From a virus (taxonomy: Duplodnaviria; Caudoviricetes), in the IMG/VR virus record IMGVR_UViG_3300048851_000202, positions 1 to 39,432 of that record: 39,432 nucleotides of DNA, one strand, 5' to 3'. Under the pieces are notes generated by a model. That model did no database searches. It was given only the letters and a program-made list of their open reading frames with translations, and was not told the origin of the DNA. Below are positions 1 to 39,078 of the stretch, one piece after another (positions within the stretch are counted from its first letter, which is position 1; each line of letters begins with the position of its first letter). Position numbers and translations under genes: made by a program.

Positions 1-282
1 GTGAACCTCGCGCAGACCGTCCCGGGCGGCATGTCCCGGCTGCGCGCCGCCGTCCCCCTGCTCAACGCGCGCGAGGTCCCGCCGGGCGTGCACCACGACG
101 TCGACCGTCCGCTCCCCGTGACCGTGACCCTGCGGTGGGCCACGGGGACGGAGCGGCTCGACACAGTGGCCGTCGAGTGGACCGCGACGCTCGTGCGCGT
201 GCGGATCGTCGACCTGCGGGTGATGACCGGCGCCGTGTGGGTGCCGGCGTCCGACGTCCACCGGCGGTCGCCCGTGGGCTGA
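1..282 (+). CDS. hypothetical protein (may be 5'-truncated by the window edge)
   Basis: 93-aa ORF with mostly G/C third positions and normal composition; lies outside the att-like repeats. Confidence 0.55.
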   Translation: MNLAQTVPGGMSRLRAAVPLLNAREVPPGVHHDVDRPLPVTVTLRWATGTERLDTVAVEWTATLVRVRIVDLRVMTGAVWVPASDVHRRSPVG

Positions 283-523: not shown

Positions 524-549
524 GCGGATGAACGGGCCGGTACGCCGGG
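524..549 (-). repeat. degenerate copy of rnpB 3' end; outer att site of an older element
   Basis: gcggatgaacgggccggtacgccggg matches 2634-2659 at 24/26 nt as a direct repeat. Confidence 0.7.
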
Positions 550-846
550 GGCGAGTGGAGATCTTTGCCACCGCCCCCGTCGAACCAGTCGACGCGCTCC
601 GGTCCCTGTCCACTCGCGGTCGACGATGACGGGCTCATCCCCAGCCGAGGGCAGGAAGGGACGTGTCGCGCTCCGGGCAGCCCTGCCCGCCTTCGTCGTG
701 CCCGTCGACGCCGACCAGGGGCTGTGGACGCCGACCGGTGCCTTTGGCGCCGCGCAGGACCCCGGCACCGGACGCCGTGCCGCCAGATCACCGGCCCGCT
801 CGACGGGGCCCACAATGCCGCCGACGCGGATCATGGGCCCCGTCGC

Positions 847-999: not shown

Positions 1000-1130
1000 T
1001 CTCTCCACCCCCTTGATGCGACGCAGACGAGCGCCATCGTGGCACGGCGACCCGACCACAACAACCCCTTCCTTCAAGCAGCACTTCGTGCAATGCTCCA
1101 TCGAACTTGCCGTTCAACAAGCGAGGGGGC

Positions 1131-1796
1131 ATGGCAACTTCAGAGAACGGGTGGAACCTCGTCCCGGCGGGGTCCTCAAGCCTGCAGTCCATACCGGGCC
1201 TTCCTGACAACCCCATCGTCCTAGGCGGAGCCGTCGCGACCGTTCTGGCGTATGTAGCTCGACAGTTCAATGCCCGGGTGGAACTGCTGACCAGCACGAG
1301 CTCCCATCGTCCCGGAGCTCTCATCGAGGGCACGAGTACGTACTCCAACCACGCTAGTGCGACCGCCATCGATCTCAACGGCGGACGACACCCGTACTAC
1401 GTCCCGGTAGCAGAGACCTTCACCACCGCCCAGGTCGCGACGATCCGTCAGATCCTTTCCGAGTGCGCCGGCGTAATCCGCTGGGGCGGGGATTTCCCAG
1501 CCAGCCGCGTGGACGGCATGCACTTCGAGATATACGCATCAGCGGAGCTCGTTGCGCTCGCAGCAGCCCGCCTCAGTGGAACTCTCCCGCCCGTCGACCA
1601 GGAGGACGACATGCTCGCGCTCGCACGACTTTCCAACAGCCCAGCGGTTTACGTCGGAAACGGCATGACCAGGCGTCACGTGGCGACGTCAGCTGAGCTC
1701 GCAGACATTCAGTCGATGATCCGGCTCGGGGTGCTCAAGGGCGACCCCGAGGTCCATGTCGTCGCGAGCATCGCTTGGCTCGGCCAGGAAGTCTGA
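1131..1796 (+). CDS. M15-family zinc peptidase, endolysin-like (L-Ala-D-Glu peptidase type)
   Basis: motifs SENGW, SNHASATAIDLN, IRWGGDF, DGMHFE; GAGGGGG before ATG 1131. Confidence 0.85.
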   Translation: MATSENGWNLVPAGSSSLQSIPGLPDNPIVLGGAVATVLAYVARQFNARVELLTSTSSHRPGALIEGTSTYSNHASATAIDLNGGRHPYYVPVAETFTTAQVATIRQILSECAGVIRWGGDFPASRVDGMHFEIYASAELVALAAARLSGTLPPVDQEDDMLALARLSNSPAVYVGNGMTRRHVATSAELADIQSMIRLGVLKGDPEVHVVASIAWLGQEV

Positions 1797-2239: not shown

Positions 2240-2641
2240 GTGGCACGCGTGTGCGCAAGCCCCTGGCGGCCGGCAGCCGCCCGACCCTGCGGACCGCCGT
2301 TCACGACGGCTACCGGTGGCGGCGTGAGGCCCTCGACCTGGGGCGAGACGTGGCGTCCCGCCGTCGCGGTGGCAGCGACGGAGGGCGCAGTCATCCACGC
2401 CCTGCGCCACTACTACGCCTCGCTGCTCATGCGTCGTCGCGAGTCGATCAAGACCCTGCGGGAGCGTCTGAGCTGCGCATCCGCGGTCGAGACGCTGGAC
2501 ACCTGCAGTCACCTGTGACCGGACCCTGGCGACCGGACCAGGGGCGCGGAGGACGCGGCCCCCGGTACCCCCGCGGACTCCCTGCGGGGTGAGCAGGGGG
2601 CGGCTGGGAGCCTCGCTTGTCGTGCTCGTCGATGCGGATGA
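2240..2641 (+). pseudogene. tyrosine integrase C-terminal remnant
   Basis: HALRHYYASLL..ESIKTLRERLSCASAVETLDTCSHL*PDPGDRTR: HxLRH kept, LGH changed to LSC, catalytic Tyr to Cys, Trp to TGA; parallels the intact integrase end TLRTYAHLWPDDDDRMR. Confidence 0.85.
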
Positions 2642-2661
2642 GCTGGCCGGTACGCCGGGTT
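2634..2661 (-). repeat. rnpB: att core: displaced 3' fragment of RNase P RNA gene
   Basis: minus strand AACCCGGCGTACCGGCCAGCTCATCCGC fits the actinobacterial rnpB terminus (CR-V/P4 AGAACCCGGCNUA followed by the P1 3' strand); 54 bp past the integrase stop. Confidence 0.75.
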
Positions 2662-2699
2662 ACGGCAGCGGCCGCCCTGACCAGCACGAACACCGCGCC

Positions 2700-2717
2700 G
2701 GGGGCTGGTCGGGGGCT
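2700..2717. promoter_or_regulatory. putative integrase arm-type binding repeats
   Basis: GGGGGCT-N4-GGGGGCT (11-bp period) between integrase stop and att; the remnant has an analogous GCGGACT-N4-GCGGGGT at 2573-2590. Confidence 0.4.
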
Positions 2718-3840
2718 ACGCGGCGTCCGGCAGGATGATCAGGCCGTCCGTCGCATCGCGCATCCGGTCGTCGTCGTCCGGCCACAGGTGCGCGTACGTG
2801 CGCAGCGTCTCCGTCGGGTCCTTGTGTCCCAGCCGGTGCGCGACGGCGCGCGGTGACGACCCTCGGGCGATGAGCAGCGAGGCGTGGAAGTGGCGCAGCT
2901 CGTGCCACCCGGTGCCCTCCGGCAGGCCCACCTTCGCCGCGGCGGCGCGCCAGGCCGTCGACGCCATGCCGCGCGTGATCGCCTGCCCCTTGCCCGTGGT
3001 GAGCACCAGCCCGCCGTCAAGGGGTCCCAGCGCCTCGAGCGTCGCCTTCCCGATCGACAGGGTCCGCACCGACGACTCGGTCTTCAGCGGCCCCCACTCC
3101 GGCCGGCCCGAGTTCCGTGTCACCCGCTGCCGGTCGATGCGCAGACGCGCGCCGGCCTCCGCCTGGAACACCCGGTCACCCGTCAGCCCGCGCGCCTCCG
3201 CGGAGCGCAGCCCGGACGCCGCGATGAGCACCGCCATCGGGCGGTACGGCCGCCAGAGCGCGTTCGTGAGGTCCTGCACCTTCTGCACGGTCATCGGCAC
3301 GACGGACGGCCGGTCCACGGGCGGCAGGTTGATCCGCCGGCACGGGGTCGCGGCGATCCGTCGCTCGTCCACGGCCAGGGCGCAGATCCCCGCCAGGTAC
3401 ACGTACGCGACGCGCACCGTCGAGCCCGCGAGCTCGCCCGCCCACGCCGTCACGGCGTCCTGCACGGCGGCGCGGTCGAGGTCGGCGAGTCGCGTCGTGC
3501 CGAGCGCCGGCAGGATCGTGCGGTCCAGGCGACGCCGCACGGCGTCCAACGAGCTCGCACGCTGGTGGACCTGCTGGCGGTACCAGCGGTCCGCCATCTC
3601 GGCGACGGTGATGGCTCCGCGCTCCGGGGACACGTACGTGCCGGCGCGCTGACTGGCGCCCACGTCCTCAAGGTGTGCTTGCGCGGCGTCCTTCGTCGGG
3701 AACGACCGTCGGCGCCGGGTGCCGTCCGGCTCGGACCAAGTCGCCCGCCAGCGCAGGCCCTGCCCGTACCGGTCGGTCCGCACCCGCTTGCGGCCGCCGG
3801 CCGGGTCGGCTGCCGTCCAGCGATCCTCGATGTTGGCCAC
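2716..3840 (-). CDS. int: tyrosine recombinase / phage integrase
   Basis: N-terminal arm-binding region (WRATWSEPDGTRRRRSF), SGLRSAE, KT, HELRHFHAS, LGH, TLRTY catalytic residues. Confidence 0.97.
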   Translation of the reverse strand: MANIEDRWTAADPAGGRKRVRTDRYGQGLRWRATWSEPDGTRRRRSFPTKDAAQAHLEDVGASQRAGTYVSPERGAITVAEMADRWYRQQVHQRASSLDAVRRRLDRTILPALGTTRLADLDRAAVQDAVTAWAGELAGSTVRVAYVYLAGICALAVDERRIAATPCRRINLPPVDRPSVVPMTVQKVQDLTNALWRPYRPMAVLIAASGLRSAEARGLTGDRVFQAEAGARLRIDRQRVTRNSGRPEWGPLKTESSVRTLSIGKATLEALGPLDGGLVLTTGKGQAITRGMASTAWRAAAAKVGLPEGTGWHELRHFHASLLIARGSSPRAVAHRLGHKDPTETLRTYAHLWPDDDDRMRDATDGLIILPDAA

Positions 3841-3849
3841 GTCAGGTCG

Positions 3850-4407
3850 TCACGAGGCGCGTTCGGGGCAGGCGCGCGCGAACGCGGCGTTCTTGTACGC
3901 CTTGATCGCGTCGTCCTGCTCGACCGTTCGGGCGTCACGGTCGGCCGGGAACCCGAGCTGCGGCGCGAGCGCGTCGTTCAGCTCGAGGTTCGTCAGCTCG
4001 GCGTCGGCGGCGCACAGGCCCTCATCGGTGGTCAGGTCGAGGGCGGCATCCAGGGTCGGTGCCGCGGTGACCGTCGTGTCGGTACCCACGTACACGGTGA
4101 CCTCGCGGTCCGAACGGACGTCGGTACCGGCCTTCGGGTAGGTCTCGACGACGAGCGACGTGCGCGCGTCGTCGTCGTCGACCGCCTTGCCGTCCGAGGT
4201 CGCCACGAAGCGGACCGTCATGTCGACCTGCTCGATCGTCTCGGCGGCCTCCGCGCCGAGCATCCCGGAAACGTCCGGCACCTGGTCCACGCGGGCCGAG
4301 GCGGACGACGCGGGTGCGCTCGGCTCGTCCGCGGGTGCCGACGTGCACCCGGCGAGTCCCAGGACAAGGGCAGCCGCGGCGAGGGCGGCGGTACGGCGGT
4401 GGCTCAT
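3850..4407 (-). CDS. lipoprotein with PASTA-like domain (possible superinfection-exclusion factor)
   Basis: lipobox LAGC after a basic and hydrophobic signal; VPDVSGMLGAEAAETIEQ..VVETYPKAGT..VTVYV PASTA-like pattern. Confidence 0.75.
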   Translation of the reverse strand: MSHRRTAALAAAALVLGLAGCTSAPADEPSAPASSASARVDQVPDVSGMLGAEAAETIEQVDMTVRFVATSDGKAVDDDDARTSLVVETYPKAGTDVRSDREVTVYVGTDTTVTAAPTLDAALDLTTDEGLCAADAELTNLELNDALAPQLGFPADRDARTVEQDDAIKAYKNAAFARACPERAS

Positions 4408-4409
4408 GG

Positions 4410-4649
4410 TCACTCCCCTGCGTGGCCCCGGCGCCGGCCGGCGCGGAGCGTTCGGTCGAAGCGGCCCATCGCCGCAGGTGCATGCTCCCAGGCGGCGGGC
4501 ACCTGCAGCAGGCGCACGACACGCTGGTAGTGCCGGGTCGGCGTGGTGCCGAGCTCGCGGCGGATCGCGTCCTCCTTCGTCCCGGCGTGCTTCCAGAACC
4601 GCGCCTCCAGGTCGAGGGCGGCCCGGTCGTCGTCGGTCAGGGTGGTCAT
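4410..4649 (-). CDS. DUF3263-family protein
   Basis: LTDDDRAALDLEARFWKHAGTKEDAIRRELGTTPTRHYQRVVRLL signature; 4-bp overlap with the immA stop. Confidence 0.85.
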   Translation of the reverse strand: MTTLTDDDRAALDLEARFWKHAGTKEDAIRRELGTTPTRHYQRVVRLLQVPAAWEHAPAAMGRFDRTLRAGRRRGHAGE

Positions 4650-5059
4650 CGGGGCTCCAGTTCCAGGTACAGCTGCAGCAGCTGGGCGGTCTCGTCGTCG
4701 GTGAGGTGGTCGATGCGATCGCGCAGGACGTCGGTGGTGACCCACAGCTCGTCAGCGACCTCGTGCAGGTTGTCCGCCCACCGGTACGCCGCCAGGAGCG
4801 CAGGCATCTCCACGAGCCGCCGGGCGGTCTCGGCGCGGACAGTGCGCTCTTCGTGGTTGCTGCAGCCGTCCACGTGCCCGTACTCGACGTGCAGCTGCTC
4901 GTGGGTGATGGCGCAGCGGCGTTGCACCTGCGACTGCCGGGGGTCCATGAAGATGCGCCGCCGGCCGTCGGTCGCGGCGAGGCGCCCGGGCGGCTGCGGG
5001 GTCCAGATCACCTCGAGGTTCGACTGCGCGCGCAGTCGGCGCCAGGGGTGGAAGGTCAC
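4646..5059 (-). CDS. ImmA/IrrE-family metallo-endopeptidase (anti-repressor)
   Basis: FHPWRRLR N-terminus, RCAITHEQLH (HExxH), EERTV, VADELWVT; GTG 5059 lies just downstream of a -10 box. Confidence 0.9.
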   Translation of the reverse strand: MTFHPWRRLRAQSNLEVIWTPQPPGRLAATDGRRRIFMDPRQSQVQRRCAITHEQLHVEYGHVDGCSNHEERTVRAETARRLVEMPALLAAYRWADNLHEVADELWVTTDVLRDRIDHLTDDETAQLLQLYLELEPR

Positions 5060-5067
5060 GGTCGGGG

Positions 5068-5089
5068 ACGGTAGCCCGAGGCACCGACA
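5068..5089 (-). promoter_or_regulatory. PafBC/RecA-NDp-type DNA-damage promoter for immA
   Basis: TGTCGG-tgcctcgggc-TA-ccg-T matches TGTCGG-N10-TA-N3-T exactly, 8 nt before GTG. Confidence 0.75.
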
Positions 5090-5117
5090 CGCCTCACCCG
5101 AATGACGGATCACGCAC

Positions 5118-5248
5118 GTGCGTTCCCGCAGGTCATGACGGGTATGACGCGACCCGGCCCCTTATCAGCCCCTCGCGCGGGCGCGCATGCACACGGGAGG
5201 TGCAAAGGGGTCGACGAGCCGGACACGTCATGACCTGCGGGAACGCAC
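5118..5248. repeat. perfect 23-bp inverted repeat with 85-bp spacer
   Basis: gtgcgttcccgcaggtcatgacg (5118-5140) is the reverse complement of 5226-5248. Confidence 0.9.
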
Positions 5249-5268
5249 CACAGGATGTGTCATGGTGC

Positions 5269-5787
5269 TCAGGCGGGGTCGTCGTGCCCCGGGTCCTGGC
5301 TGTGCTCCCCCGTGCTGTCACGCTCCGCGTACGCCGGTGTGCCCGGCATGGCGGCGAGGGCTACCTCGTCCTTGGCTAGCTCCGCCGACTCGCCGCCGAC
5401 CACGATCGCCGGGCCGTGCGGGGACGGGTAGACGAAGTCCGGCCCTGATCGGTGTCGGCGCGTGAGGACTCGGGCGACGCCGAGGAGCGCGCGCTGCTCG
5501 TCCTCAGGCAGGTCGTCCAGGCCTGGGGGCAGGAGCTGCTCTACGAGCCCACCGGGCGTGCCGGTGTCGAGGCCGAGGGACTCGGCCGCGGCGAGCACGA
5601 CCGTGCGCTGGGTGACGCCGAGGGCGCCGGCGATGGATCGGATGGTGGGCGGGTCCGGGAAGTTCCGGATCGGGCTGGTGGCGAGTTGTTGCCACCGCTG
5701 CCGTCCAGGCGTCCCGCCGGCGTCGCGCGCCAGGTCGTCATAGCTGCGGTCTCCCTTGGTCGAGCGGATCAGTTCCGCGAGGTCCAT
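5269..5787 (-). CDS. immunity repressor (XRE-like HTH)
   Basis: RSYDDLARDAGG..WQQL..FPDPPTIRSIAGALGV..VVLAAAESLGL; divergent from the cro-like gene. Confidence 0.85.
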   Translation of the reverse strand: MDLAELIRSTKGDRSYDDLARDAGGTPGRQRWQQLATSPIRNFPDPPTIRSIAGALGVTQRTVVLAAAESLGLDTGTPGGLVEQLLPPGLDDLPEDEQRALLGVARVLTRRHRSGPDFVYPSPHGPAIVVGGESAELAKDEVALAAMPGTPAYAERDSTGEHSQDPGHDDPA

Positions 5788-5830
5788 GACCGCACCCTCT
5801 CGACGCGTGGCGGGACGCCACAACCTGCAC

Positions 5831-6010
5831 GCACTGGTAGGCGCCTACCAGTGCTGGACGCTCAACCGTAGCCGGAGTGCCTACTAAGAACCAGGCCGTG
5901 ACCTGCGGTTCCGCACCACGAACGGAAGAAGTTGCCAGCAGGGGGTTGCGCTGGTGCCTATCAGTGGTGCACTCTCATGCCTACCAGTTCTTGACAGTAG
6001 GCACCTACCA
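5831..6010. promoter_or_regulatory. repressor/Cro operator region with rightward -35 box
   Basis: perfect 24-bp palindrome 5831-5854; GCCTACCAGT half-site copies at 5956 (1 mismatch) and 5979; imperfect palindrome 5997-6008; TTGACA at 5991-5996. Confidence 0.75.
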
Positions 6011-6022
6011 CCGGGAGGATCG

Positions 6023-6358
6023 ATGCACACCGTCACGCGGCTCCGACGCCGCTGGCCGAAGGGAACCTGGATGCGCCTGAAGAGCCCCGAGCTCCTGCGA
6101 GCGTTCGTCGGCGACCCGCTGAAGGACGCCTCCAAGCGCATGTCCGGCCGCCAGCTCGCCAAGTACGTCGACGTGCACCCCAGCTTCATCGACCACCTGC
6201 TCGCCGGCCGTCGCACCTCGTGCGAGCCCGGTACCGCCGAGCGCATCGCGGAGGTCCTCGGGGTCCCCCTGAACGTCCTCTTCGACCCCAAGGTGCCCAC
6301 CACTGCGCGGCAGACCGTCCAGCACTCCGCGCACAACACGCTCACCCGGGCCGCCTGA
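6023..6358 (+). CDS. Cro-like HTH regulator
   Basis: MSGRQLAKYVDVHPSFIDHLLAGRRTSC..AERIAEVLGV XRE HTH; GGGAGG upstream. Confidence 0.85.
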   Translation: MHTVTRLRRRWPKGTWMRLKSPELLRAFVGDPLKDASKRMSGRQLAKYVDVHPSFIDHLLAGRRTSCEPGTAERIAEVLGVPLNVLFDPKVPTTARQTVQHSAHNTLTRAA

Positions 6359-11965: not shown

Positions 11966-12649
11966 ATGAGCACTCCCACCGCGAACGACTTCCTGCTCGG
12001 CGGCGGCGGCAAGTCCGCCAAGTTCGACCAGGTCGGCGACACCATCACCGGCGCGATCGTCTCCACCGAGGTCCGCCAGCAGACCGACCTGCAGGGCAAC
12101 CCGCTGGTCTGGGACAACGGCGACCCGCGCATGCAGCTCGTCGTCACCCTCGCCACCGACCTGCGGGACGATGCCGAGGACGACGGCCACCGTGCCGTCT
12201 ACGTCAAGGGCTCCAAGGCCTTCGGCTCGAAGTCCCTGCACGACGCCGTCCGCGCCGCCGTGCAGAACGCCGGCGCGAAGGGCCTCGAGCCGGGCGGCCG
12301 CCTCACCGTGTCCTACGTCGGCTCCGAGCCGGCCAAGACCCGGGGCTTCTCCGACCGCAAGCTCTGGGAGGCCACGTACGCCGCGCCGGACCACGCCGCC
12401 AGCACCGGCGACTACCTCGGCACCGCGCCGGCGACCACCCCGGCCCCGGCCGCGGTGCAGCAGCCCGCCGTCGCGCCGGCCGCCGTCGCCACCACGGCGC
12501 CGGCCGCCGCGCCCGCCCAGGGCGCCGACGCCGGCGCGACGGCCCGCCAGCTCATCGGGCTCGGCCTCGACGACACCACCATCGCCGGCGCCACCGGCCT
12601 GGACGTGTCCGTCATCGCCCTGCTCCGGGGCACCCCCGCCGCGGCCTGA
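11966..12649 (+). CDS. single-stranded DNA-binding protein (actinophage type)
   Basis: KSAKFDQVGDTITG..QQTD..WDNGDPRMQLVVTLAT..DDG..VYVKG; AAGGAG RBS; next to the exonuclease. Confidence 0.75.
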   Translation: MSTPTANDFLLGGGGKSAKFDQVGDTITGAIVSTEVRQQTDLQGNPLVWDNGDPRMQLVVTLATDLRDDAEDDGHRAVYVKGSKAFGSKSLHDAVRAAVQNAGAKGLEPGGRLTVSYVGSEPAKTRGFSDRKLWEATYAAPDHAASTGDYLGTAPATTPAPAAVQQPAVAPAAVATTAPAAAPAQGADAGATARQLIGLGLDDTTIAGATGLDVSVIALLRGTPAAA

Positions 12650-12768
12650 GCCCCGGCACCCCGCGCCGCGTCAGGCGCGCCGCCCGTCCGAGCCGGGCCG
12701 CGGGGGCAACGAGCACCAGCACCACCCACGACGAAGGAGCAGTCCGTGAGCCACAGGACCCGTCCCGC

Positions 12769-25054: not shown

Positions 25055-25732
25055 ATGTCCGAGCCCACGCCCGCCGCGTCCGCGGCCCCGGCCGAGCCGC
25101 AGCAGTCCGCCACCCCGGACCCGCCCGCGCAGCCTGCGCCCGCCCCGCAGCAGCCCGCGGCGCCCGCGAGCGACGAGCCGTGGGCCGACCCGGAGAAGGC
25201 CCGCGCGGAGATCGAGAAGCTTCGCCGGGAGAACGGCGCCGCGCGGACCAACGCGAAGCAGCAGGCCGCCGACGACGCGCGCGCCGAGCTCGCGCAGACC
25301 ATCGGCAAGGCGCTCGGTCTCGTTCAGGGCGACGAGGCCCCCACCGTCGAGCAGCTCACGCAGACGCTCGGCTCCACCACCGACGAGCTGCGCCTCGCGA
25401 AGGTCGAGCTCGCGGTGCACAAGGCAGCCCCCACCCACCAGGGCGACGCGAACGCCCTGCTCGACTCCCGGGCCTTCCTGGCGAAGGTCGCGGACCTGGA
25501 CCCCGCAGCCGCGGACTTCCAGACCCTGGTGAACGCCGCCATCGAGAAGGCGCTCGCCGAGAACCCAAAGCTCAAGGCGGTCCAGGCGACCGGCGCGAGC
25601 GCTGTCGACCACGCCGGCGGGTCCGGCGAGGGCGCCGTCACGCCGGAGCAGTTCGCCGCCATGAAGCCGGCGGAGAAGAACGCGCTCTACGTCTCCAACC
25701 CGACCCTGTACCGCCAGCTCGCCGGCCGCTGA
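25055..25732 (+). CDS. capsid scaffolding protein
   Basis: Pro/Ala-rich N-terminus, EIEKLRRENGAARTNAK, LLDSRAF, ENPKL; directly before the MCP. Confidence 0.85.
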   Translation: MSEPTPAASAAPAEPQQSATPDPPAQPAPAPQQPAAPASDEPWADPEKARAEIEKLRRENGAARTNAKQQAADDARAELAQTIGKALGLVQGDEAPTVEQLTQTLGSTTDELRLAKVELAVHKAAPTHQGDANALLDSRAFLAKVADLDPAAADFQTLVNAAIEKALAENPKLKAVQATGASAVDHAGGSGEGAVTPEQFAAMKPAEKNALYVSNPTLYRQLAGR

Positions 25733-25754
25733 GGCCGGAGAACGGAGCGTCACC

Positions 25755-26636
25755 ATGACGCAGACCCAGTCCACGGACCTCTACGCCCCGGAGGTCTGGG
25801 AGGACCTCGCGCAGGCCTCCTTCACGGGCAAGGCCATCGTGGCCACCTCCCCTGCCGTCGCGGTCGACGACACCCTCGTCGGCAAGCCCGGCAAGACCGT
25901 CGAGTTCCCGAAGTGGATGGCCCTCAGCGAGCTCGACGACCTCACCGAGGGCGTCCCGATGGTCCCCGAGAAGCTCAAGCAGAGCGCCTCGAAGGCCACC
26001 ATCAAGGAGGCCGGCAAGGCCGTCGAGATCACCGACACCGCGGACCTCACCGGCCTGGGCAACCCCCAGGACGAGGCGATCCGCCAGTTCGGCGAGCTCG
26101 CCGCCCGCAAGGTCGACGCCGACCTCATCACCGCCGCGCAGGCGACCGTGGCCGGCGGCATCTCCTACGCCGACGGCTCGACGTCTACGGCCTCCGCGCC
26201 GCTGTCGTTCACGACCGCCGCCGGCGCCGGGCTGTCCTGGGGCACGTTCGTCGACGCGACCGCGGTCGCCGGCGACGAGTTCGAGCCCGAGGACTGGGCG
26301 CTGTTCGTGCGCACCGAGCAGCGCGTGCAGCTGCTGAAGGACGACGACTTCATCCAGGCCGCCAACGCGTCCAGCTCGGAGCGCAACGTCATCCAGCGCG
26401 GCTTCATCGGCTTGCTGGGCGGCTCGCCCGTCTACGTGACGAATCGGCTCGCCACCAACAAGGGCGTGTTCGTGAAGAACCGCTCGCTCGGCCTGCTCTA
26501 CAAGCGCCGTCCGATCGTCGAGCAGGACCGGGACATCCTGGCTCGCTCGACGCTCGTCACGACGAACCTCCACTACGCGACGAAGCGCCTGAACGACAAG
26601 GGCGTCATCGTCGTCACCTTCACCCCGAGCGCCTGA
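25755..26636 (+). CDS. major capsid protein (N4-gp56-like, HK97 fold)
   Basis: PEVW, DDTLVGKPGKTVEFPKW, EAGKAVEITD, ARKVD, VEQDRDIL. Confidence 0.92.
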   Translation: MTQTQSTDLYAPEVWEDLAQASFTGKAIVATSPAVAVDDTLVGKPGKTVEFPKWMALSELDDLTEGVPMVPEKLKQSASKATIKEAGKAVEITDTADLTGLGNPQDEAIRQFGELAARKVDADLITAAQATVAGGISYADGSTSTASAPLSFTTAAGAGLSWGTFVDATAVAGDEFEPEDWALFVRTEQRVQLLKDDDFIQAANASSSERNVIQRGFIGLLGGSPVYVTNRLATNKGVFVKNRSLGLLYKRRPIVEQDRDILARSTLVTTNLHYATKRLNDKGVIVVTFTPSA

Positions 26637-26638
26637 GC

Positions 26639-27019
26639 ATGGGCATCGGGTCGCTGCGGCGGCACTACCCCGTCCGGGACGTCGAGCCGACGTACCCGGA
26701 CGGGGACCCCGCCGAGTCGTGGAAGGTCGACGAGCTTCGCGCGTTCGCGCGGGCGAACGACGTCGACCTGAAGGGCGCGACGAAGAAGGCCGAGATCCTC
26801 GCGGCCATCGTCGACGCCAAGGAGCCGACGGGGCCGGGCGCGGACGCGTTCGACCCGTCGCAGCATGAGGCGGACGCCGTGCTCGAGTACCTCGCGGGCC
26901 TGGACGACACCGACACCGAGGCGCGCGACGCCGAGGTGGCCCGGGTCGTCGAGGCGGAGCGGTCCGGTCAGAACCGGGCCGAGCTCATCGAGGCGATCGA
27001 GGGCACGCCCGCCGACTGA
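26639..27019 (+). CDS. small acidic head-associated protein with HeH/Rho-N-like motif
   Basis: WKVDELRAFARANDVDLKGATKKAEIL. Confidence 0.75.
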   Translation: MGIGSLRRHYPVRDVEPTYPDGDPAESWKVDELRAFARANDVDLKGATKKAEILAAIVDAKEPTGPGADAFDPSQHEADAVLEYLAGLDDTDTEARDAEVARVVEAERSGQNRAELIEAIEGTPAD

Positions 27020-27025
27020 CCGCGA

Positions 27026-27152
27026 GGGTGGTGGGGCGTCAACGTCGGCCCGGCAGGGTCTCCTGTCCCCAACCTCCGACGAAGGCCGCTTGGGGCTGTT
27101 CAAGCCGGGTCCTTTCCAGCTCTGCAGCAGCGCGTCCTGCGTCCCACCACCC
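27026..27152 (+). ncRNA. candidate structured RNA element
   Basis: nested stems 27026-27038/27140-27152, 27047-27054/27104-27111 and 27067-27072/27090-27095; G-U pairs in the two outer stems favour the + strand. Confidence 0.4.
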
Positions 27153-27185
27153 ACCGCATCACCCGTCGCCCGGAGGTGACCGTCC

Positions 27186-27605
27186 GTGCTCGTCTACGCC
27201 ACCCCGGGCGACATGGCCACGTGGACCGGCCAGCCGGCACCCGACAACGCCGTGCAGCTGCTGCGGTCCGCGTCGGTCATGGTCCGCGGCGCCACCCGCA
27301 CCGCCCTGTACGCCGTCCAGCCCTCGGGCCTGCCCGCCGACGACGAGAAGCGCGACGCGCTGCGCGACGCGACGTGCGCACAGGCCGCGGCTTGGTCCGC
27401 CGCGGGGATCGACCCGACCGCGCCTGTCGCGCAGCGCGGCCGGGTCGCGACGTCGAAGTCCCTCGGCTCCGGGGCGGTGACCTACGCGGACGCCGCGTCC
27501 GTCGTCGCCGCCCAGGACGCCCTCCGGGAGCGGCTCACCGACGAGGCCGCCGCGATCCTCGCTGACGCCGGCCTCACCGGCGGCCAGGCGATCGTCTACG
27601 GCTGA
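27186..27605 (+). CDS. head-to-tail adaptor
   Basis: VYAT..LLRSAS..ALRDATCAQA..SKSLGS..AILADAGL. Confidence 0.8.
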   Translation: MLVYATPGDMATWTGQPAPDNAVQLLRSASVMVRGATRTALYAVQPSGLPADDEKRDALRDATCAQAAAWSAAGIDPTAPVAQRGRVATSKSLGSGAVTYADAASVVAAQDALRERLTDEAAAILADAGLTGGQAIVYG

Positions 27606-27608
27606 CCC

Positions 27609-27725
27609 GTGGACGCCGTCGTCACCATCTACGCCGGCGACTGGGTCATCACCGGGCCCGACCCGGCCGCGCTGATCCCGCTCGACGACATCCTGCTCCG
27701 CTGGAGGGCGCACCGTGGCCGCTGA
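27609..27725 (+). CDS. 38-aa hypothetical peptide
   Basis: MDAVVTIYAGDWVITGPDPAALIPLDDILLRWRAHRGR; near-total GC3; fills the gap between neck genes. Confidence 0.45.
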   Translation: MDAVVTIYAGDWVITGPDPAALIPLDDILLRWRAHRGR

Positions 27726-28038
27726 CGAGCTCGACGACTTCCTCGTGCACACCGTCACCATCACCCCGAAGACCGGTGACGGCGCGTACGGCGCCCAGTT
27801 CGGCGCCCCCGTCACGGACGTCCCCGCCTGGGTGGACGACACCCGCCGCCTGGTGCGCGACGCCGACGGCGCCGAGGTGGTGTCGTCCACCACGGTCTTC
27901 CTGCGGGCCGGCACCGACTGCCCTCCCGGGTCACTCATCGACCTGCCTTCCGGGCGTAGCGCCGAGGTCATCGCCGTCGCCGTCCGCGACTCCGGCCCCC
28001 TGGACCTGCCCGGCCACGTCGAGGTGTCCGTCGCCTGA
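27715..28038 (+). CDS. head-to-tail stopper
   Basis: HTVT..GAYG..RRLVRDADGAEVVSSTTV; synteny. Confidence 0.8.
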   Translation: MAADELDDFLVHTVTITPKTGDGAYGAQFGAPVTDVPAWVDDTRRLVRDADGAEVVSSTTVFLRAGTDCPPGSLIDLPSGRSAEVIAVAVRDSGPLDLPGHVEVSVA

Positions 28039-28051
28039 CTGGAGGTGCACC

Positions 28052-28405
28052 GTGCCGCAGTCCTGGACGTTCACCGCCGGCGCCCCCGACGGCCCCGAGG
28101 CGGTCCGCGCGGGCGGACGCCGCGGCCTGCACCTGGCACTGGAGCAGATCCTCACCACCGCCCGGTCCCGGGCCCCGATCGAGGAGCACACGCTGGAGCA
28201 GTCCGGTGCGACCGCGATCAGCGGTGACGGCCTGCACGGCACCGTCTCGTTCGACACCCCGTACGCGGTCCGCCAGCACGAGGACATGACCGCCCGGCAC
28301 GACGAAGGCCGGCGCGCGAAGTACCTGGAGTCCGCCATGCACGACGACCGCGCCACCGCCGTCCGGCTCGTGCAGCAGCAGCTGCGCCGCGCGCTCGGCA
28401 CCTAG
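28052..28405 (+). CDS. neck protein (HK97 gp10-like)
   Basis: APIEEHTLEQSG..VSFDTPYAVRQHE..AKYLE. Confidence 0.8.
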   Translation: MPQSWTFTAGAPDGPEAVRAGGRRGLHLALEQILTTARSRAPIEEHTLEQSGATAISGDGLHGTVSFDTPYAVRQHEDMTARHDEGRRAKYLESAMHDDRATAVRLVQQQLRRALGT

Positions 28406-28414
28406 GAGGCACCC

Positions 28415-28852
28415 GTGGCGTGGACCACCGACGTCCTGACCGGCCTCGCCGAGCACCTTGCCGCCGATGGGCACGGAACCTGGCGCCCGACCGGCGTCTA
28501 CGCGGCCGGTGAGACAGGCATCGCCATGGGGAACATGCCGGCCACCCCGGACCGTGTGATCGTCCTGACGTCCTACCCCGTCGACGAGTCCGCGCGTCTC
28601 GACGACGTGCTGCTCGGCGTGCAGATCCGATGCCGCGCCGGCGGCCGGGACCCGCGCGCCGTCACCGACATGGATGACGAGATCCGCGACACCCTGCACG
28701 GCGGCCGCGACCTGCAGCTCGGGCCCGCGCCGGTGGCCCTGATCTGGCGCGCGTCGCACGCCCGCCTCGGTCCCGACGCGAACGGCCGCCATGAGACGAG
28801 CTCGAACTACTACCTGCGCACCGCCCGCGGCAGCGCACACCTCACCGACTGA
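28415..28852 (+). CDS. tail terminator / minor capsid family protein
   Basis: MPATPDRVIVL..VQIRCR..LGPDANGRHE..NY. Confidence 0.8.
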   Translation: MAWTTDVLTGLAEHLAADGHGTWRPTGVYAAGETGIAMGNMPATPDRVIVLTSYPVDESARLDDVLLGVQIRCRAGGRDPRAVTDMDDEIRDTLHGGRDLQLGPAPVALIWRASHARLGPDANGRHETSSNYYLRTARGSAHLTD

Positions 28853-28909
28853 GCTCCGGGCAGGGACAGGCCCTGCACCGGCATCCCCGAACACCCGGAG
28901 GACACCACC

Positions 28910-29641
28910 ATGAGCGAGCAGACTCTCGTCCCCGCCGGCACGCCGACGGTCAACACCGCCTGGCGCGTCGACGTCAACACCGGCACCGTCGAGGCCCCCG
29001 TGTGGGTGCAGATCCGCGGCGCGAACAACATCGCGGCGCCGGTGAACAACACCACCCAGGACGCGACCGACTACGACTCCGAGGGCTGGGGCGCGGACGC
29101 CGTGACGCTGCGGAAGTGGCAGATCACGCTCGGCCTCCAGCGCAAGCGGTACGCGAACGCCTACGACCCCGGCCAGGAGGTGCTGCGCGCCGCCGCCGAG
29201 TCGCTCGAGCTGGTGCACGTGCGCTGGTACGACCGCTCCGGCGCCGACGCTGAGGCCTACCACGGCTACGCGCAGGTGCAGTGGACGCCCGCGGGCGGCG
29301 ACGCGACCGGCCTCCAGACCGTGAACGTGGTCCTGCTCGGTCAGGGTCGGCGCGGCATCCTCGGCACGAACCCGAGCGTGGCCGCCGCGCCGGCCGCCGT
29401 CGCGTCCGTCGTCCCCACCGGCGCCGCTGCCGGCGAGCTCGTCACCATCAAGGGCTCCGGGTTCTCGTCCGTGACCGGGGCCGCGGGCGTGAAGTTCGGC
29501 AGCACGAACGCCGCGGGCTACACCGTGGTCAACGACGTCACCATCGTGGCGTCCCTGCCGGCCGGGTCCGCCGGCTCGGCCGGGGTCACCGTCACCAACA
29601 CGGTCGGCGCCTCCCCCGCGCACCCGTACACCCGGGCCTGA
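28910..29641 (+). CDS. major tail tube protein with C-terminal IPT/TIG domain
   Basis: DATDYDSEGW, DPGQEVLR, VRWYDR; Ig-like PTGAAAGELVTIKGSGF..VKFG. Confidence 0.88.
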   Translation: MSEQTLVPAGTPTVNTAWRVDVNTGTVEAPVWVQIRGANNIAAPVNNTTQDATDYDSEGWGADAVTLRKWQITLGLQRKRYANAYDPGQEVLRAAAESLELVHVRWYDRSGADAEAYHGYAQVQWTPAGGDATGLQTVNVVLLGQGRRGILGTNPSVAAAPAAVASVVPTGAAAGELVTIKGSGFSSVTGAAGVKFGSTNAAGYTVVNDVTIVASLPAGSAGSAGVTVTNTVGASPAHPYTRA

Positions 29642-29646
29642 CGCGC

Positions 29647-30147
29647 ATGACCGACCAGTTCGAGGACCTGGGCGAGGCCCTGTCGCCGACCCTGGATCTC
29701 CCCGTGGCGGGGAAGGTGTACCGCGTGCCTTCCCCGCCGGCGCGGGTCGGCCTGCGCCTGCAGGCCGCGTTCGCGATCAGCGCGGCGCGCCAGGCCGGCA
29801 CCGCCCCGAAGGCCCACCACGTGCAGCTCATCGAGCAGGACGACGGGTCGACGTCGCTCGACCAGGACGCCCTGGGCCCGGTGTACGACGAGATGATCGC
29901 CGACGGCGTGAACACCGAGATGCTCACGCACGCCGGCATGACCGCCTGGTGGTGGATCGTCGCCGGCAAGCGGGCGGCGCGCCTGTACTGGGTGAGCCCC
30001 TTGGGGGAAGCGCAGAGGCCGCTGCCGGACCTGTCGACCTCGACCAGTACGGGCGAGGCGACTACGACCCCGACACCGGCCTCTACGAGTGGTACGACGT
30101 CCCCCATGGCGAGCTCGCCCGGTTCGAGCAGCACGCCGACGGCCTGA
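29647..30147 (+). CDS. tail assembly chaperone (gpG-like)
   Basis: between tail tube and tape measure; LDLPVAGKVYRVPSP; contains the slippery site. Confidence 0.85.
   Translation: MTDQFEDLGEALSPTLDLPVAGKVYRVPSPPARVGLRLQAAFAISAARQAGTAPKAHHVQLIEQDDGSTSLDQDALGPVYDEMIADGVNTEMLTHAGMTAWWWIVAGKRAARLYWVSPLGEAQRPLPDLSTSTSTGEATTTPTPASTSGTTSPMASSPGSSSTPTA
30003..30009 (+). other. programmed -1 frameshift site G GGG GAA
   Basis: in-frame TTG GGG GAA; after it the high-GC3, protein-like reading moves to the -1 frame. Confidence 0.8.
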
Positions 30148-30335
30148 CCTGGGACACCCTGTTCGCCCGGTGGGCGCTCGTCGAAGCCGACCTGCACGAG
30201 GTGTTCGGCATCGACGTCGACGACCCCGACCTGATGGCCGCCCGCACGTGGCGGTGGCTGCGCGCCCGCATCGTCGCCCTGCAGACCTCCCCCGGCACCC
30301 GCCTCGCGCGGTCCCTGAGCAAGCCCAGGAGGTGA
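30003..30335 (+). CDS. frameshift extension of the chaperone (gpGT-like C-terminal part)
   Basis: WALVEADLHEVFGID..RTWRWLRARIVAL in the -1 frame, ending just before the tape measure gene. Confidence 0.8.
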   Translation, partial: GGSAEAAAGPVDLDQYGRGDYDPDTGLYEWYDVPHGELARFEQHADGLTWDTLFARWALVEADLHEVFGIDVDDPDLMAARTWRWLRARIVALQTSPGTRLARSLSKPRR

Positions 30336-30339
30336 CCAG

Positions 30340-33066
30340 GTGAGCGAGCTGGACCTCGGCACCCTGCGCGGGCACGTCGACCTCGACGTCGCCGCGTTCG
30401 ACCGGAAGTACGGCCAGGTCCAGACGAACCTGAAGCGGCTGTCGTCCACGCAGATCCCCGACCTCGTCGTGGACGTCGACGCGACGAACGTGTTCACCGC
30501 GGTGGACCGGGTCGACACTGCCGTGCAGGGCATCCCCGACGGGAACGTCACGGTCGGGGCCGACACGGCGGGCGCCCTGGGCGACCTGTCGAAGGTCGGC
30601 GCGGAGGCCCGCGCCCTGCCGGACGGCGAGCTCGAGGTCACCGCCGACACGTCGGGCGCGCGCGGGTCGCTGAACGACCTGTCCGGCGCGGCGAAGGCCG
30701 GCGCCGCGCAGGCAGGCGACGAGGCGGGGTCGAACCTGGCCGGCGGGATCCTCGCGGCCCTCGCCACCATCCCGGTGGCTGGGGCCATCGTCGGCATCGG
30801 CGCCGCCATCGGCGACGCCATGCTCGACGGCCTGCAGAACGAGGTCCGCTCGGACCGGCTCGCCGCGATGACGGACCTGTCCCCCGAGCAGGTCGCACTC
30901 GTGGGGCGCGCCGCCGGCGAGGCATACGCGAACAACTTCGGCGAGTCCATCGCCTCCAACATGGACGTCGCCCGGGTGGCGATCCAGGCCGGCCTTCTCG
31001 ACCCGAACGCCACCGCCCGGGACACGCAGGCGGTCATCGAGCAGGTCACCGGCGTCGCGGATCTCCTTGGTGAAGACGTCCCCCGGGTGGCGCGCTCGGC
31101 GGCGCAGGCGATCAAGACCGGCATGGCCGGGGACGCTGCCGGTGCCTTCGACATCCTGGTGCGCGCGCAGAAGGCCGGGCTCAACGTCTCGGAGGACCTA
31201 CTCGACACGGTCGACGAGTACTCCACCCAGTTCCGCAAGCTCGGGCTGGAGGGCCCGCAAGCGTTCGGTCTGATCGCCCAGGCCGTGCGCGCCGGCGCGC
31301 GCGACACGGACATCGGCGCGGACGCGCTGAAGGAGTTCTCGATCCGGGCGGTCGACGGGTCGGTGCTCACCCAGCAGTCGTTCGAGGCGATCGGCGCGTC
31401 CGCGTCGGACATGGCCGCCAGGATCGCCGCCGGCGGGCCAGACGCGGCCGCCGCGCTCGACGAGACACTCGACAAGCTGCGCGCTGTCGAGGACCCGGCG
31501 AAGCGAGCGCAGATCGCGGTGGGGCTGTTCGGCACCCAGGCCGAGGACCTGGGCGACGCGCTGTACGCGATGGACCTGACGTCCGCAGTGGACCAGCTGG
31601 GCGCCGTCGAGGGGGCCGCGAAGACCGCGCTGCAGACCCTCGGCGACAACAGCGCCGGCCAGATCGAGACCGCCGAGCGGAACATCGCCACCGCTGCCGA
31701 TGGCATCAAGGGCGCGCTGGCCGCCGCGTTCGCCCCGCAGATCGAGGGGTTCTCGACGTTCGTCACCACGAACCGCGAGGCCGTGATGACGTTCCTGCTG
31801 AACGCCGCGAACGGGGCGCTCGACTTCGGCCGCGCCGTCGTGGAGGGCATCGCCGCGGGGACGGAGGCGGTTGGCGGGTTCATCGCCGGACCGGCCGCTG
31901 ACCTGATCCAGTCGGTCGCCGACACGATCGACTCGTTCAACATCCTCGGCGGGATCCTCGGCCAGAAGCTCGGGCCGTCCGCGGACGCCCTGCACGACGT
32001 CGCCGACGGCATGCGCGGCGCCGACGACGCCGCGTCGGGCATCGCCGACACGATCCGCACGAACCTCATCGGGAACGGCCTCGACCCCGCGCAGCAGCGG
32101 CTCAACGACTTCGCCATGCCGCTGGTCACCCAGGCCGCCCTGCACGACGCCATGACGTCGGTCGCCTCCGGCCTGGACGGCGTCGGCTACGCCGCGGACG
32201 GCGCGAAGCTCAACCTGGCGGGCGTGGACCTGGCGAACCTCACCGCCTCGGAGTCGGGGCGGGTCCTCGACGAGCAACTCCGCGCTGTGGCCACCGGCCT
32301 CGACGCGCAGACATCCGCGGGCACGCGCGCCGGCGACTCGCAGGCGGTGCTGTCGCAGCGCTACGAGGAGGGCCGACAGGCCCTGGTCAACCAGCTGCAG
32401 CAGATGGGCCTCACCCAGGGCCAGGCCGAGGCTCTGGCCCGGGCCTACGGCGCCGTCCCGGGCAAGGTCGACACCACGTTCAACGCGTACACCGACGCGG
32501 CGCAGACGCAGGTCGACAACTTCATCGCCCGCAACCAGGGGAAGGTCATCCGGCTCACCGCCGAGGTGTCCGCGTCCGGAAACCCGGTGTACGTGACGGC
32601 CACGGGTGCGAAGTTCGAGGGCCGGGGCGACGTCATTCAGTACATGGCCGAGGGCGGCGTCGTCCCCCGGCCGCTGGACCGGTCCGCCGCCACGCTGGTC
32701 GCCCCCGGCGACCTGCGGGTGATGGTCGGCGACCGCAAGGACGTGCGCGAGCTGTTCGCGCCGCTCGACCGGTCCGCGCGCACGCACCAGCTGATGGCGC
32801 AGGGCGCCCGGGAGATGGGCGCGCTGTACCTCCCAATGGCGGACGGCGCCCTGCTCGGGACCACGTCCGCGCCCGGTCCCGCGCGCGCTGGTGCAGATGC
32901 ACCGGTCTCCGTGGTGGTCCCCGACGAGGTGCACCTCGCTGCACGGTCGGTGCGCGAGCTCGCGGACGCGATCCTCGCCGGGGCTCGCGACGTCTCTGCC
33001 CAGGCCCTCGCGAGTGCCGTGCGCGCTGCCGCGGGCTCTCGCTCGACTCCAGGGGTGGTGCGCTGA
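30340..33066 (+). CDS. tape measure protein
   Basis: 908 aa Ala/Gly-rich; DLLDTVDEYSTQFRKLGL, DALKEFSIRA, LFGTQAEDLG. Confidence 0.95.
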   Translation: MSELDLGTLRGHVDLDVAAFDRKYGQVQTNLKRLSSTQIPDLVVDVDATNVFTAVDRVDTAVQGIPDGNVTVGADTAGALGDLSKVGAEARALPDGELEVTADTSGARGSLNDLSGAAKAGAAQAGDEAGSNLAGGILAALATIPVAGAIVGIGAAIGDAMLDGLQNEVRSDRLAAMTDLSPEQVALVGRAAGEAYANNFGESIASNMDVARVAIQAGLLDPNATARDTQAVIEQVTGVADLLGEDVPRVARSAAQAIKTGMAGDAAGAFDILVRAQKAGLNVSEDLLDTVDEYSTQFRKLGLEGPQAFGLIAQAVRAGARDTDIGADALKEFSIRAVDGSVLTQQSFEAIGASASDMAARIAAGGPDAAAALDETLDKLRAVEDPAKRAQIAVGLFGTQAEDLGDALYAMDLTSAVDQLGAVEGAAKTALQTLGDNSAGQIETAERNIATAADGIKGALAAAFAPQIEGFSTFVTTNREAVMTFLLNAANGALDFGRAVVEGIAAGTEAVGGFIAGPAADLIQSVADTIDSFNILGGILGQKLGPSADALHDVADGMRGADDAASGIADTIRTNLIGNGLDPAQQRLNDFAMPLVTQAALHDAMTSVASGLDGVGYAADGAKLNLAGVDLANLTASESGRVLDEQLRAVATGLDAQTSAGTRAGDSQAVLSQRYEEGRQALVNQLQQMGLTQGQAEALARAYGAVPGKVDTTFNAYTDAAQTQVDNFIARNQGKVIRLTAEVSASGNPVYVTATGAKFEGRGDVIQYMAEGGVVPRPLDRSAATLVAPGDLRVMVGDRKDVRELFAPLDRSARTHQLMAQGAREMGALYLPMADGALLGTTSAPGPARAGADAPVSVVVPDEVHLAARSVRELADAILAGARDVSAQALASAVRAAAGSRSTPGVVR

Positions 33067-33923
33067 TGAGCCTGTCGGTGGAGGTGCTTGCCGATGCGGG
33101 CGCCCCGCAGGTGGGCATCACGGTCACGGGGCTGCCGTCAGGCACCCCGTCGGTCGTGACCGTCGAGAAGTCGGTCGATGGCACCAGCTGGGAGACCGTT
33201 CGAGGCGCACTGCGCGAGTCGGTGACCGGCGCGTCGTTCTTCCGGGACTTCGTACCGCCCCTCAACGTCGAGACGACGTACCGGCTGATCACGACCGCCG
33301 TGGTCGCCGGTCCGACCACGGCGACGATCGTCGTGCCGTCGGAGAACGCGTGGCTGCAGGACCCGCTGAACCCGCGCGCTGCCGTGCCGATTCGCGCGCT
33401 CGGCATGGGCACAGGGCTGGCGCTGCTCGCCCCGTCCGCGGCCTCGCTGCTGCGGGCCCAGGTCGTGGACGTCGTCCAGGTGCAGGGCGCCAAGACCCCG
33501 GTCGCGTCCGTGGGCCCCCGGCAGGCGCCGTCGCAGGTGCCGCTGCTGATCCGCGCGGCCGCCGCCGCTCAGGGCGCACTGGTCAAGGAGCTGCGGGATC
33601 TGCTCGACGGGGCAGGTGTTCTCGTCCTGCGCGGGCTGCATGCGGCCTCGGGGCTCGACCCGGTCGCCCACGTCGTCGCAGGTGACGTGACGGAGGTCGC
33701 CACGCCGCTCGGGGTCCGCAACGACTGGCAGCTCGTGGTGACGCAGGTCCGGGCTCCGTCGCCGCGGATCGTCGTGCCGTGGTGGACCTACGACCAGGTG
33801 AAGGCGCTGTGGGAGGGCTTCACCTACGACGACGCCCTGGCGGCGCGTCCGGGCGCGACGTACCTGGACTGGCTGCGTGACCCGTCCCCGTCGGCTGCTG
33901 GCCGTGCTTCGAAGGAGTCCTGA
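33066..33923 (+). CDS. minor tail protein (distal-tail position)
   Basis: TGATG-coupled to the tape measure gene; DFVPPLNVETTYR, WLQDPLNP. Confidence 0.75.
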   Translation: MSLSVEVLADAGAPQVGITVTGLPSGTPSVVTVEKSVDGTSWETVRGALRESVTGASFFRDFVPPLNVETTYRLITTAVVAGPTTATIVVPSENAWLQDPLNPRAAVPIRALGMGTGLALLAPSAASLLRAQVVDVVQVQGAKTPVASVGPRQAPSQVPLLIRAAAAAQGALVKELRDLLDGAGVLVLRGLHAASGLDPVAHVVAGDVTEVATPLGVRNDWQLVVTQVRAPSPRIVVPWWTYDQVKALWEGFTYDDALAARPGATYLDWLRDPSPSAAGRASKES

Positions 33924-36017: not shown

Positions 36018-36043
36018 CCGCGGCGCCAGGAAGGACCACCACC

Positions 36044-36715: not shown

Positions 36716-36718
36716 CCC

Positions 36719-37768: not shown

Positions 37769-38205
37769 CCGTGCCCGACCGCCGCCGCTACGCGCGCACC
37801 CCGGACACGATCCTCCTGCTCGCCGCGCTCGCGCTGACGGCCGGGGTGCTGACGCTGTCGGCGAAGGCGCCCGGGTCTGTGCTCGAGCTCGTCCCGCTGT
37901 GGGCGGCGCTCGTATGGTCCGGCACCCTCGCGGCAGGCGCGGCGTGCGCCCTCGCCGGCGTGCTCTGGCGCGACCCGCTGTGGGGATGGGGCCTGGAGCT
38001 CGCCGGCCGCGTGTCTGTCGCGTGCACGTGTGCTGCGTACACCTGGGCCCTCTGGTCCGCCGCCACACAGGCCGGCACCGCCCTCATCGTCGCGATCGTC
38101 GGCGGCATCACAGCTTCCTCGATCGCCAGGATCTACCAACTCGCGCGGCGGTGGCGGCAGTTCGTCGCGTCGGTGGAGCGCAACGGCCGCAGGAGGACCC
38201 GATGA
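37765..38205 (+). CDS. multi-TM lysis-cassette membrane protein
   Basis: about four hydrophobic helices; GTGA overlap with the endolysin. Confidence 0.75.
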   Translation: MTVPDRRRYARTPDTILLLAALALTAGVLTLSAKAPGSVLELVPLWAALVWSGTLAAGAACALAGVLWRDPLWGWGLELAGRVSVACTCAAYTWALWSAATQAGTALIVAIVGGITASSIARIYQLARRWRQFVASVERNGRRRTR

Positions 38206-38612: not shown

Positions 38613-38629
38613 CCATGGAGGAGACCACC

Positions 38630-39004: not shown

Positions 39005-39022
39005 CCCCTTCCCGCACGCGAC

Positions 39023-39058: not shown

Positions 39059-39078
39059 TCGTCGTACGGGCTACTGAG

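Follow-up and report, generated by a model that had tools for sequence, protein, structure and literature searches.

The locus studied here raises the question of whether a tailed prophage has inserted itself into rnpB, the gene for RNase P RNA, as an earlier note made from the letters alone had proposed for 28 nt lying just past the stop of an integrase gene. The window, that is, the whole stretch of DNA that was analysed, is an IMG/VR record of 39,432 nt, and the features on which the question turns are the following:

1–282, plus strand: host flanking gene of 93 aa, with no family hit, which follows rnpB in Cellulomonas
2634–2661, minus strand: displaced rnpB 3' end (the 28-mer), an exact match to the end of RF00010 genes and very probably the core of the integrase-side att junction (attR in rnpB orientation)
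2662–2715, minus strand: phage arm of the junction, with GGTCA at 2682–2678, 16 nt from the core
2716–3840, minus strand: tyrosine integrase (int) of 374 aa (PF00589, PF22022, PF14659)
3850–6358, no strand assigned: lysogeny/immunity region, its roles inferred from position
3850–4413, minus strand: PASTA-domain protein (Pfam), lipoprotein-like, directly upstream of int
4646–5113, minus strand: M78/IrrE-like peptidase of the lysogeny/immunity region
5269–5823, minus strand: probable repressor, with no family hit, its role taken from position
5954–6358, plus strand: HTH protein of the lysogeny/immunity region
2662–39432, plus strand: tailed prophage, with Pfam matches for primase, terminase, portal, capsid, tape measure and endolysin

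Read on the minus strand, 2661–2634 is AACCCGGCGTACCGGCCAGCTCATCCGC, preceded by ccgt, and it begins 54 nt beyond the integrase stop (2716). From base composition, about 1.5e-11 matches to such a 28-mer would be expected in the window by chance. When GTDB genomes were scanned with its first 27 nt, 21 exact matches were obtained, all in entries titled Cellulomonas, Sanguibacter or Cellulosimicrobium. Sixteen of them were the final 27 nt of an RF00010 gene (180–311 bits in Rfam), each time with ACAG before the 27-mer, while three were orphans with non-rnpB DNA upstream (L001, L004 and L013) and two lay at contig ends (L008 and L018). With 16 of 21 exact matches closing RF00010 genes, the earlier identification of the 28-mer as the 3' end of an RNase P RNA gene was borne out: it is a displaced copy of the Cellulomonas/Sanguibacter rnpB 3' end. 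Two strands of the ribozyme fall within it:

2659–2652, minus strand: 3' strand of P4
2648–2637, minus strand: 3' strand of P1

Positions 14–25 of the 28-mer pair with the first 12 nt of rnpB to form P1 (duplex of −27.7 kcal/mol), and positions 3–10 are complementary to the GAGGAACGTCCGGGC strand of rnpB, a pairing which we take to be the catalytic helix P4 within CR-V of RNase P RNA. The covariation of P4 is visible in the Rfam alignment as a paired change from the consensus AAAG/CUUA to AACG/CGUA, GGAAC occurring with GGCGTA versus GGAAA with GGCUUA in the consensus. Rfam found no full-length RF00010 match in the window, the 28-mer being a fragment only, and gave no match with the fragment alone; its sole match in the window, snoZ206, was discarded as chance-level (E 4.2). 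ARAGORN found no tRNA or tmRNA near the 28-mer, in line with what the earlier note had seen. A 'tRNA-???' call by the same program at 12629–12707 (minus strand) overlaps the end of a coding gene and is probably spurious.

The surroundings of the 28-mer are those of a prophage in this part of the host chromosome. The host gene at 1–282 was 83–86% identical in nucleotides to a gene located 0.4–2.7 kb downstream of intact rnpB in seven loci (L002, L003, L006, L007, L016, L017 and L019), so that the left flank of the window corresponds to the rnpB-downstream region of Cellulomonas; in L013 the homologue sits behind a displaced rnpB copy. A paralogue of this gene (73–79% nucleotide identity) was also seen by the rnpB junction in L020 (3153–3448) and L037 (2024–2268), at the right ends of prophages, possibly captured there by imprecise excision. 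The integrase has PF00589, SAM-like N-terminal domains and the intact R, H-x-x-R, H and Y of lambda-type enzymes, its catalytic motifs reading GLRSAE, HELRH and LGH...TYAH. The PASTA-domain protein encoded next to it might, as a guess, serve in superinfection exclusion. The prophage was 66–83% identical in nucleotides to that of C. hominis CS1, and its late region was mostly 90–99% identical to the IMG/VR records G853 and G854.

Both junctions could be observed in relatives. In C. hominis CS1, a full rnpB and an orphan copy of its end lie 37.7 kb apart, an integrase 78% identical to that of the window ends 55 nt before the orphan copy, a homologue of the host gene 1–282 follows behind, and the prophage in between is syntenic with the window. 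The same two-junction layout, with a related integrase at the displaced copy, was present in G321 (54.8 kb), G347 (42.0 kb), G132 (20.3 kb) and an IMG/VR contig (L034/L031; 56.5 kb). The two rnpB copies of S. suaedae are 6.4 kb apart, and no similar integrase was found between them. In all, six related elements of 6–57 kb are bounded by a full rnpB and a displaced copy, and S. inulinus and G318 carry their two copies on separate contigs. At empty sites (L006, L007, L017 and others), the rnpB end runs straight into the host flank. Contigs from three of four soil runs skip 296–2632 and join the host gene to a 29-mer via 34 other letters; runs X2–X4 contain only relatives (share 0.12–0.17). The comparison with prophage-free relatives called for at the outset thus came out as expected for insertion at rnpB. 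In the probable source run, contigs break exactly at 2633–2661, as they would at a repeat. The run contigs yielded neither an attP nor an attB junction for this phage. A crude estimate of contig depth gave about 51 for the phage side and about 60 for the host side; as the phage side was not above the host side, there was no sign of induction.

The record stops short of the rnpB-side junction of the prophage, and the intact rnpB of the lysogen would lie outside it, beyond 39432. A search of IMG/VR for an extension of the right end (40-nt pattern, last ORF) yielded 0 hits and 2 pattern hits, none of which was confirmed. The nearest relative is represented by two IMG/VR records with one source number: G854, with an integrase 95% identical, matches the left half of the window, and G853 matches 25641–39059 (mostly 90–99%). 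G853 starts with 76 nt of the rnpB 3' domain, followed by the identical 28-mer and a phage arm. Since its rnpB end is located about 3.9 kb past the lysis genes, the missing right end of the window's prophage is probably within a few kb. The interval between lysis cassette and rnpB in G853 (L068, 326–1991, minus strand) encodes two extra peptidoglycan peptidases, one M23-like and one VanY-like; at that position the window has a different gene of low similarity.

Integration sites of integrase homologues were then compared on trees built with FastTree from 34 and then 60 aligned integrase segments. The window's integrase belongs to a clade with 15 other loci (support 0.88–0.98 in the 60-segment tree). 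In 11 of the 11 clade loci with downstream DNA, the rnpB end follows int in the same sense; the other four clade loci came without flank sequence. These 11 represent about eight independent lineages, as three Sanguibacter-type loci and two phages are near-duplicates, and a metagenome fragment (L067, integrase 86% identical) adds another rnpB-end lineage. The distance from int stop to rnpB end is 4–80 nt, or about 0.8 kb in L044 of G318, where extra DNA (2628–3422) separates the two. Two clade members are the cultured Arthrobacter globiformis phages Kukla (PQ362669) and TripleJ (MN234178/NC_049470), with integrases 47% identical. They carry ACAG plus a 28-nt rnpB end 16–19 nt after int; this putative attP, at which the records annotate no feature, is identical to the rnpB end of G318 over 32 of 32 nt. 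A 26-mer of the same end occurs exactly in 14 of 301 genomes from the family of G318. In L030, too, the core is next to int and between phage-type sequences. No other cultured phage among 50,697 phage records was found to have an rnpB end beside an integrase (blastn with three 36-nt and one 133-nt variants of the rnpB end). From the same records MT836823 matched 126 nt of rnpB, and MT835553 was set aside: what matched is part of a complete rnpB-like gene, and no similar integrase occurs within 2 kb. A search of plasmids matched S. noursei pNKL and 18 other records, and pNKL was likewise dismissed, its match being 20 nt long with no similar integrase nearby.

The exact copy of the rnpB end and the related prophages lying in rnpB indicate that the phage most likely inserts there. 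We consider it highly probable that the tyrosine integrase of this prophage recombined into Cellulomonas rnpB and that the 28-mer is the junction left behind. The two junctions observed in relatives, and the rnpB end that Kukla and TripleJ carry beside int, argue for integration into rnpB with a replacement 3' end, as the earlier note had put it. Judging by lambda-family integrases and by the comparisons above, attP would comprise the final ~28 nt of rnpB with an arm on either side, and Int, the presumed catalyst, would exchange strands within the 3' strand of P4 at positions ~3–11. The phage copy would then complete rnpB at one prophage end, and the previous rnpB end would be pushed to the other, beside int.

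The place of the exchange was narrowed by comparing copies of the core:

2653–2659, minus strand: putative strand-exchange overlap CCCGGCG, positions 3–9 of the 28-mer (3–11 allowed)

Among 21 displaced/attP copies, A occupies position 1 in 15 and position 2 in 19, and positions 3–11 together have four single changes. The displaced copy of L042 has a mismatch at position 5, inside the proposed overlap. Since positions 1–2 vary among displaced copies, strand exchange is more likely at positions 3–11. Positions 3–9 are the best placement of a 7-bp dyad, a weak one (0.48), and 6- and 8-bp placements near position 11–12 score more (0.63 and 0.60). An overlap at positions 3–9 (window 2659–2653) is our preferred, if not firm, placement. 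The earlier note had taken the break from ACAG to CCGT for the crossover point; the break itself is probably only the left limit of the crossover, the exchange occurring a few bases on within the 3' strand of P4. In the arms of 11 displaced/attP copies, that of the window among them, G[GT]TCA precedes the core by exactly 16 nt. A mirrored TGACC-type motif, which most empty sites lack, occurs 10–13 nt after intact rnpB in lysogens. Kukla and TripleJ are without the G[GT]TCA arm motif. A crossover at the midpoint of the arm motifs (position 12–13) was rejected, because position 12 differs between the intact and displaced copies in G777 and among the copies in G405.

These regularities bear on whether the fragment could be host DNA acquired passively, by homologous recombination, imprecise excision or chimeric assembly, with no site-specific core at all. 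Short host pieces do occur, as L020 and L037 illustrate, whose prophages carry a paralogue of the gene 1–282 at the right end. However, the left edge of identity falls within 0–5 nt of one place in all copies, even though the integrases are 47–78% alike, and its spacing to the arm motif and to the int stop is constant; moreover, source-run contigs cover both sides of the junction with no gaps and no differences. Passive acquisition is therefore, in our estimation, improbable in the extreme, and site-specific integration is retained in what follows.

If the phage provides the end of rnpB, the lysogen's ribozyme might be affected. The intact and displaced 28-mers were identical in seven of nine pairs; one of the remaining pairs differs at position 1 and the other at several places, and position 9 matches in all nine. 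With identity in seven of nine pairs, no change of the ribozyme is expected, and replacement of the rnpB 3' end is probably neutral, leaving the mature RNA unchanged. The statement that the RNase P RNA of the lysogen is partly phage-encoded thus holds formally, but an altered RNA is not to be expected from it. An integration that is both real and functional, in which the phage end or the loss of the host terminator alters RNase P RNA, seems unlikely to us. It would fit the finding that in lysogens the phage arm takes the place of the GC hairpin located behind rnpB at empty sites, and that in G347 and G777 the element-supplied end shortens the predicted P1 pairing by 3–4 kcal/mol; phage phiEf11 alters the 3' end of 4.5S RNA (PMC12540744). 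Against it, besides the identical pairs, the differences keep pairing or sit at the end of P1, and the shift of 3–4 kcal/mol predicted in three genomes goes down twice and up once, the intact copy of G632 having better P1 pairing than the displaced copy. An unchanged ribozyme remains our preferred expectation.

To the left of the 28-mer, the window contains traces of what is most likely a previous insertion:

524–551, minus strand: second, degraded displaced rnpB 3' end, identical at 23 of 28 positions
552–2633, no strand assigned: most likely an older, decayed island at the same rnpB site, with a GC content of 0.68 versus 0.74–0.76 around it
1107–1796, plus strand: Peptidase_M15_4 ORF (PF13539) in the old island
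about 2285–2520, plus strand: C-terminal remnant of a broken second-lineage integrase, directed towards the core

The copy at 551–524 had been overlooked in the earlier note. It is followed by GCACGAG, as in the empty-site loci L006 and L017 (31 of 33 nt), and is most likely the original rnpB end of the host. The broken integrase, interrupted by an in-frame stop, is 49–58% identical in amino acids to second-lineage integrases, and L070 and L071 have rnpB-side junctions with which the old island is collinear. Taken together, the degraded copy, the broken integrase and the contigs that skip this region suggest that the older island came first and that its end was later displaced by the prophage. 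The rnpB site was most likely used twice, first by the older element of the second lineage, giving a tandem array, and the 28-mer at 2634–2661 was itself most likely supplied by that element.

This history raises the possibility that the 28-mer belongs to the older island alone and that the prophage entered beside it, at an intergenic site or another repeat; the window does contain an older rnpB-type element whose junction is collinear with second-lineage junctions, and the far end of the prophage is outside the record. Yet in C. hominis CS1, G321 and Sanguibacter loci an integrase of the clade lies directly against the displaced copy, beyond which there is plain host DNA, in L030, Kukla and TripleJ the core lies between phage-type sequences, and the 16-nt spacing of the arm motif is common to the window and its relatives. 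We regard entry beside the site as very improbable and keep to integration at the rnpB end itself.

The Peptidase_M15_4 gene of the old island (1107–1796, plus strand) is lysin-like and unrelated to the endolysin of the prophage, and its C-terminus matches DNA downstream of rnpB in L002. Similar GC hairpins, each ending GGGGGCGCTTCGTCGT, are present at 1814–1853, after this gene, and at 39024–39064, after the lysis cassette; they probably represent one phage terminator in common, which hints at a phage end as the origin of the old island. Arrays of this kind are common. Among 201 genomes of the host family, 178 of which had any match, 33 held two to five copies of the rnpB end, an upper bound, since some extra copies are possibly unrelated matches. 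In the family of G318, 3 of 301 genomes (135 with any match) were multi-copy; three additional multi-copy genomes were checked in the host family and one in that of G318. Five extra displaced ends occur within 31 kb in G701 (C135, 49626–80576) and three within 21 kb in G405 (C1, 1514765–1535915), arrays that represent repeated island accretion. In G385 (C2, 76838–87726), two identical second-orientation elements stand in tandem at rnpB, 9.75 kb apart.

Beyond the clade, homologues at 34–41% identity mostly face the intact rnpB instead of the displaced end (L035, L045–L049, L051, L078, L084, L085, L088 and L089). Since these distant homologues face the intact gene, attP would exist in two orientations relative to int. 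An rnpB end adjoined 12 of 18 loci in an even sample at the order level. At the class level it adjoined 11 of 26, compared with 5 of 130 shuffles in the pattern control, a count that excludes chance-level hits (L075 at −1314, L084 at +521, L088 at −1257 and L099 at −1902) and the unpublished genomes L097 and L100. No convincing rnpB end was found within ~1.5 kb in the other 15 class-level loci, nor within that distance in Dulem virus 32 (41%) and L050. Homologues L053, L054 and L055 (32–34%) adjoin the 3' ends of a 3-hydroxybutyryl-CoA dehydrogenase gene, glnA and ychF, respectively; L056 looks, by eye, like L054 at the glnA end. These sister integrases (L053–L056) would represent target switches within one integrase family. 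At 25 integrase loci, no tRNA or tmRNA was found. The deeper nodes of the tree were weak (several at 0–0.6) and give no support to any order of target switches, so rnpB is not claimed as the ancestral target.

With this prophage, the gene of a universal, essential ribozyme joins the list of phage attachment sites. As the target belongs to the most conserved parts of rnpB, the integrases are candidates for use with a single-copy landing pad across Actinomycetes; Kukla and TripleJ, being in culture, permit a direct test, and if the proposal is true they could give a broad-host integration vector. If the G/T covariation at position 9 is likewise true, the ribozyme genotype of the host would set which elements lysogenize. 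Textbook chemistry, the logic of 3'-end replacement and a probably unchanged RNA limit the surprise.

Tyrosine-integrase islands reportedly lie at the 3' ends of tRNA and tmRNA genes, as Williams is said to have described in 2002. Prophages of this kind resemble the rnpB case in having int by the displaced 3' fragment, an attP that restores the gene, and tandem accretion; they cross in the anticodon or T loop, whereas here the crossover would fall in a pseudoknotted catalytic helix, P4. L5, P22, HP1 and P4 are among the examples in a table of insertion sites (PMC12540744, Table 1). The same paper covers two further cases of non-coding RNA targets. The pneumococcal phages SpSL1 and phiOXC14 target csRNA genes (PMC12540744), also small and non-coding, but regulatory sRNAs rather than a universal essential ribozyme. 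Enterococcus phage phiEf11 integrates into ffs, the gene of 4.5S SRP RNA, published in 2025 as a novel attachment site, and is alike in that an essential housekeeping non-coding RNA gene is attB. Its core is 27 nt long and 74 nt from int, versus 28 nt and 54 nt for rnpB; it crosses in mid-gene, with 12 of the final 17 nt altered, whereas the whole 3' end is restored in rnpB; and the use of ffs is nearly confined to E. faecalis (PMC12540744), whereas that of rnpB spans the class sample. RNase P models were screened in Enterococcus in that study, and no such site appears in the sections consulted, in four supplements or in the table of insertion sites.

The TIGER/Islander collection of precisely mapped islands (PMC12424338) comprises 1.76 million entries, 33.8% in tRNA/tmRNA genes, 43.4% in CDS and 22.8% intergenic, and its text does not name rnpB. 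Elements at rnpB are probably among the entries; because these are the only classes, such sites would be filed as intergenic, as they would be by island finders in general, which seek tRNA and tmRNA ends. In the literature searched, mostly non-subscription papers, there was no report of rnpB as an attachment site: rnpB and RNase are absent from the main text and one supplement of PMC12884075, and passages in PMC2705793, PMC4524478, PMC2864759, PMC5771137 and PMC8776855 have unrelated content. The evidence tilts slightly towards rnpB being a previously undescribed third general docking site among RNA genes, after tRNA and tmRNA, used by a class-wide actinobacterial family of tyrosine integrases with two opposite attP orientations that would recombine inside the 3' strand of P4, the overlap base at position 9 (G/T) covarying with its P4 partner. 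Kukla and TripleJ share the clade and the layout of the window's prophage; being virion genomes, they have an unrecombined putative attP, unlike the prophage junction. Docking at rnpB is therefore a new target for a known mechanism, which works like that of tRNA- and tmRNA-targeting prophages without making this prophage a member of that group.
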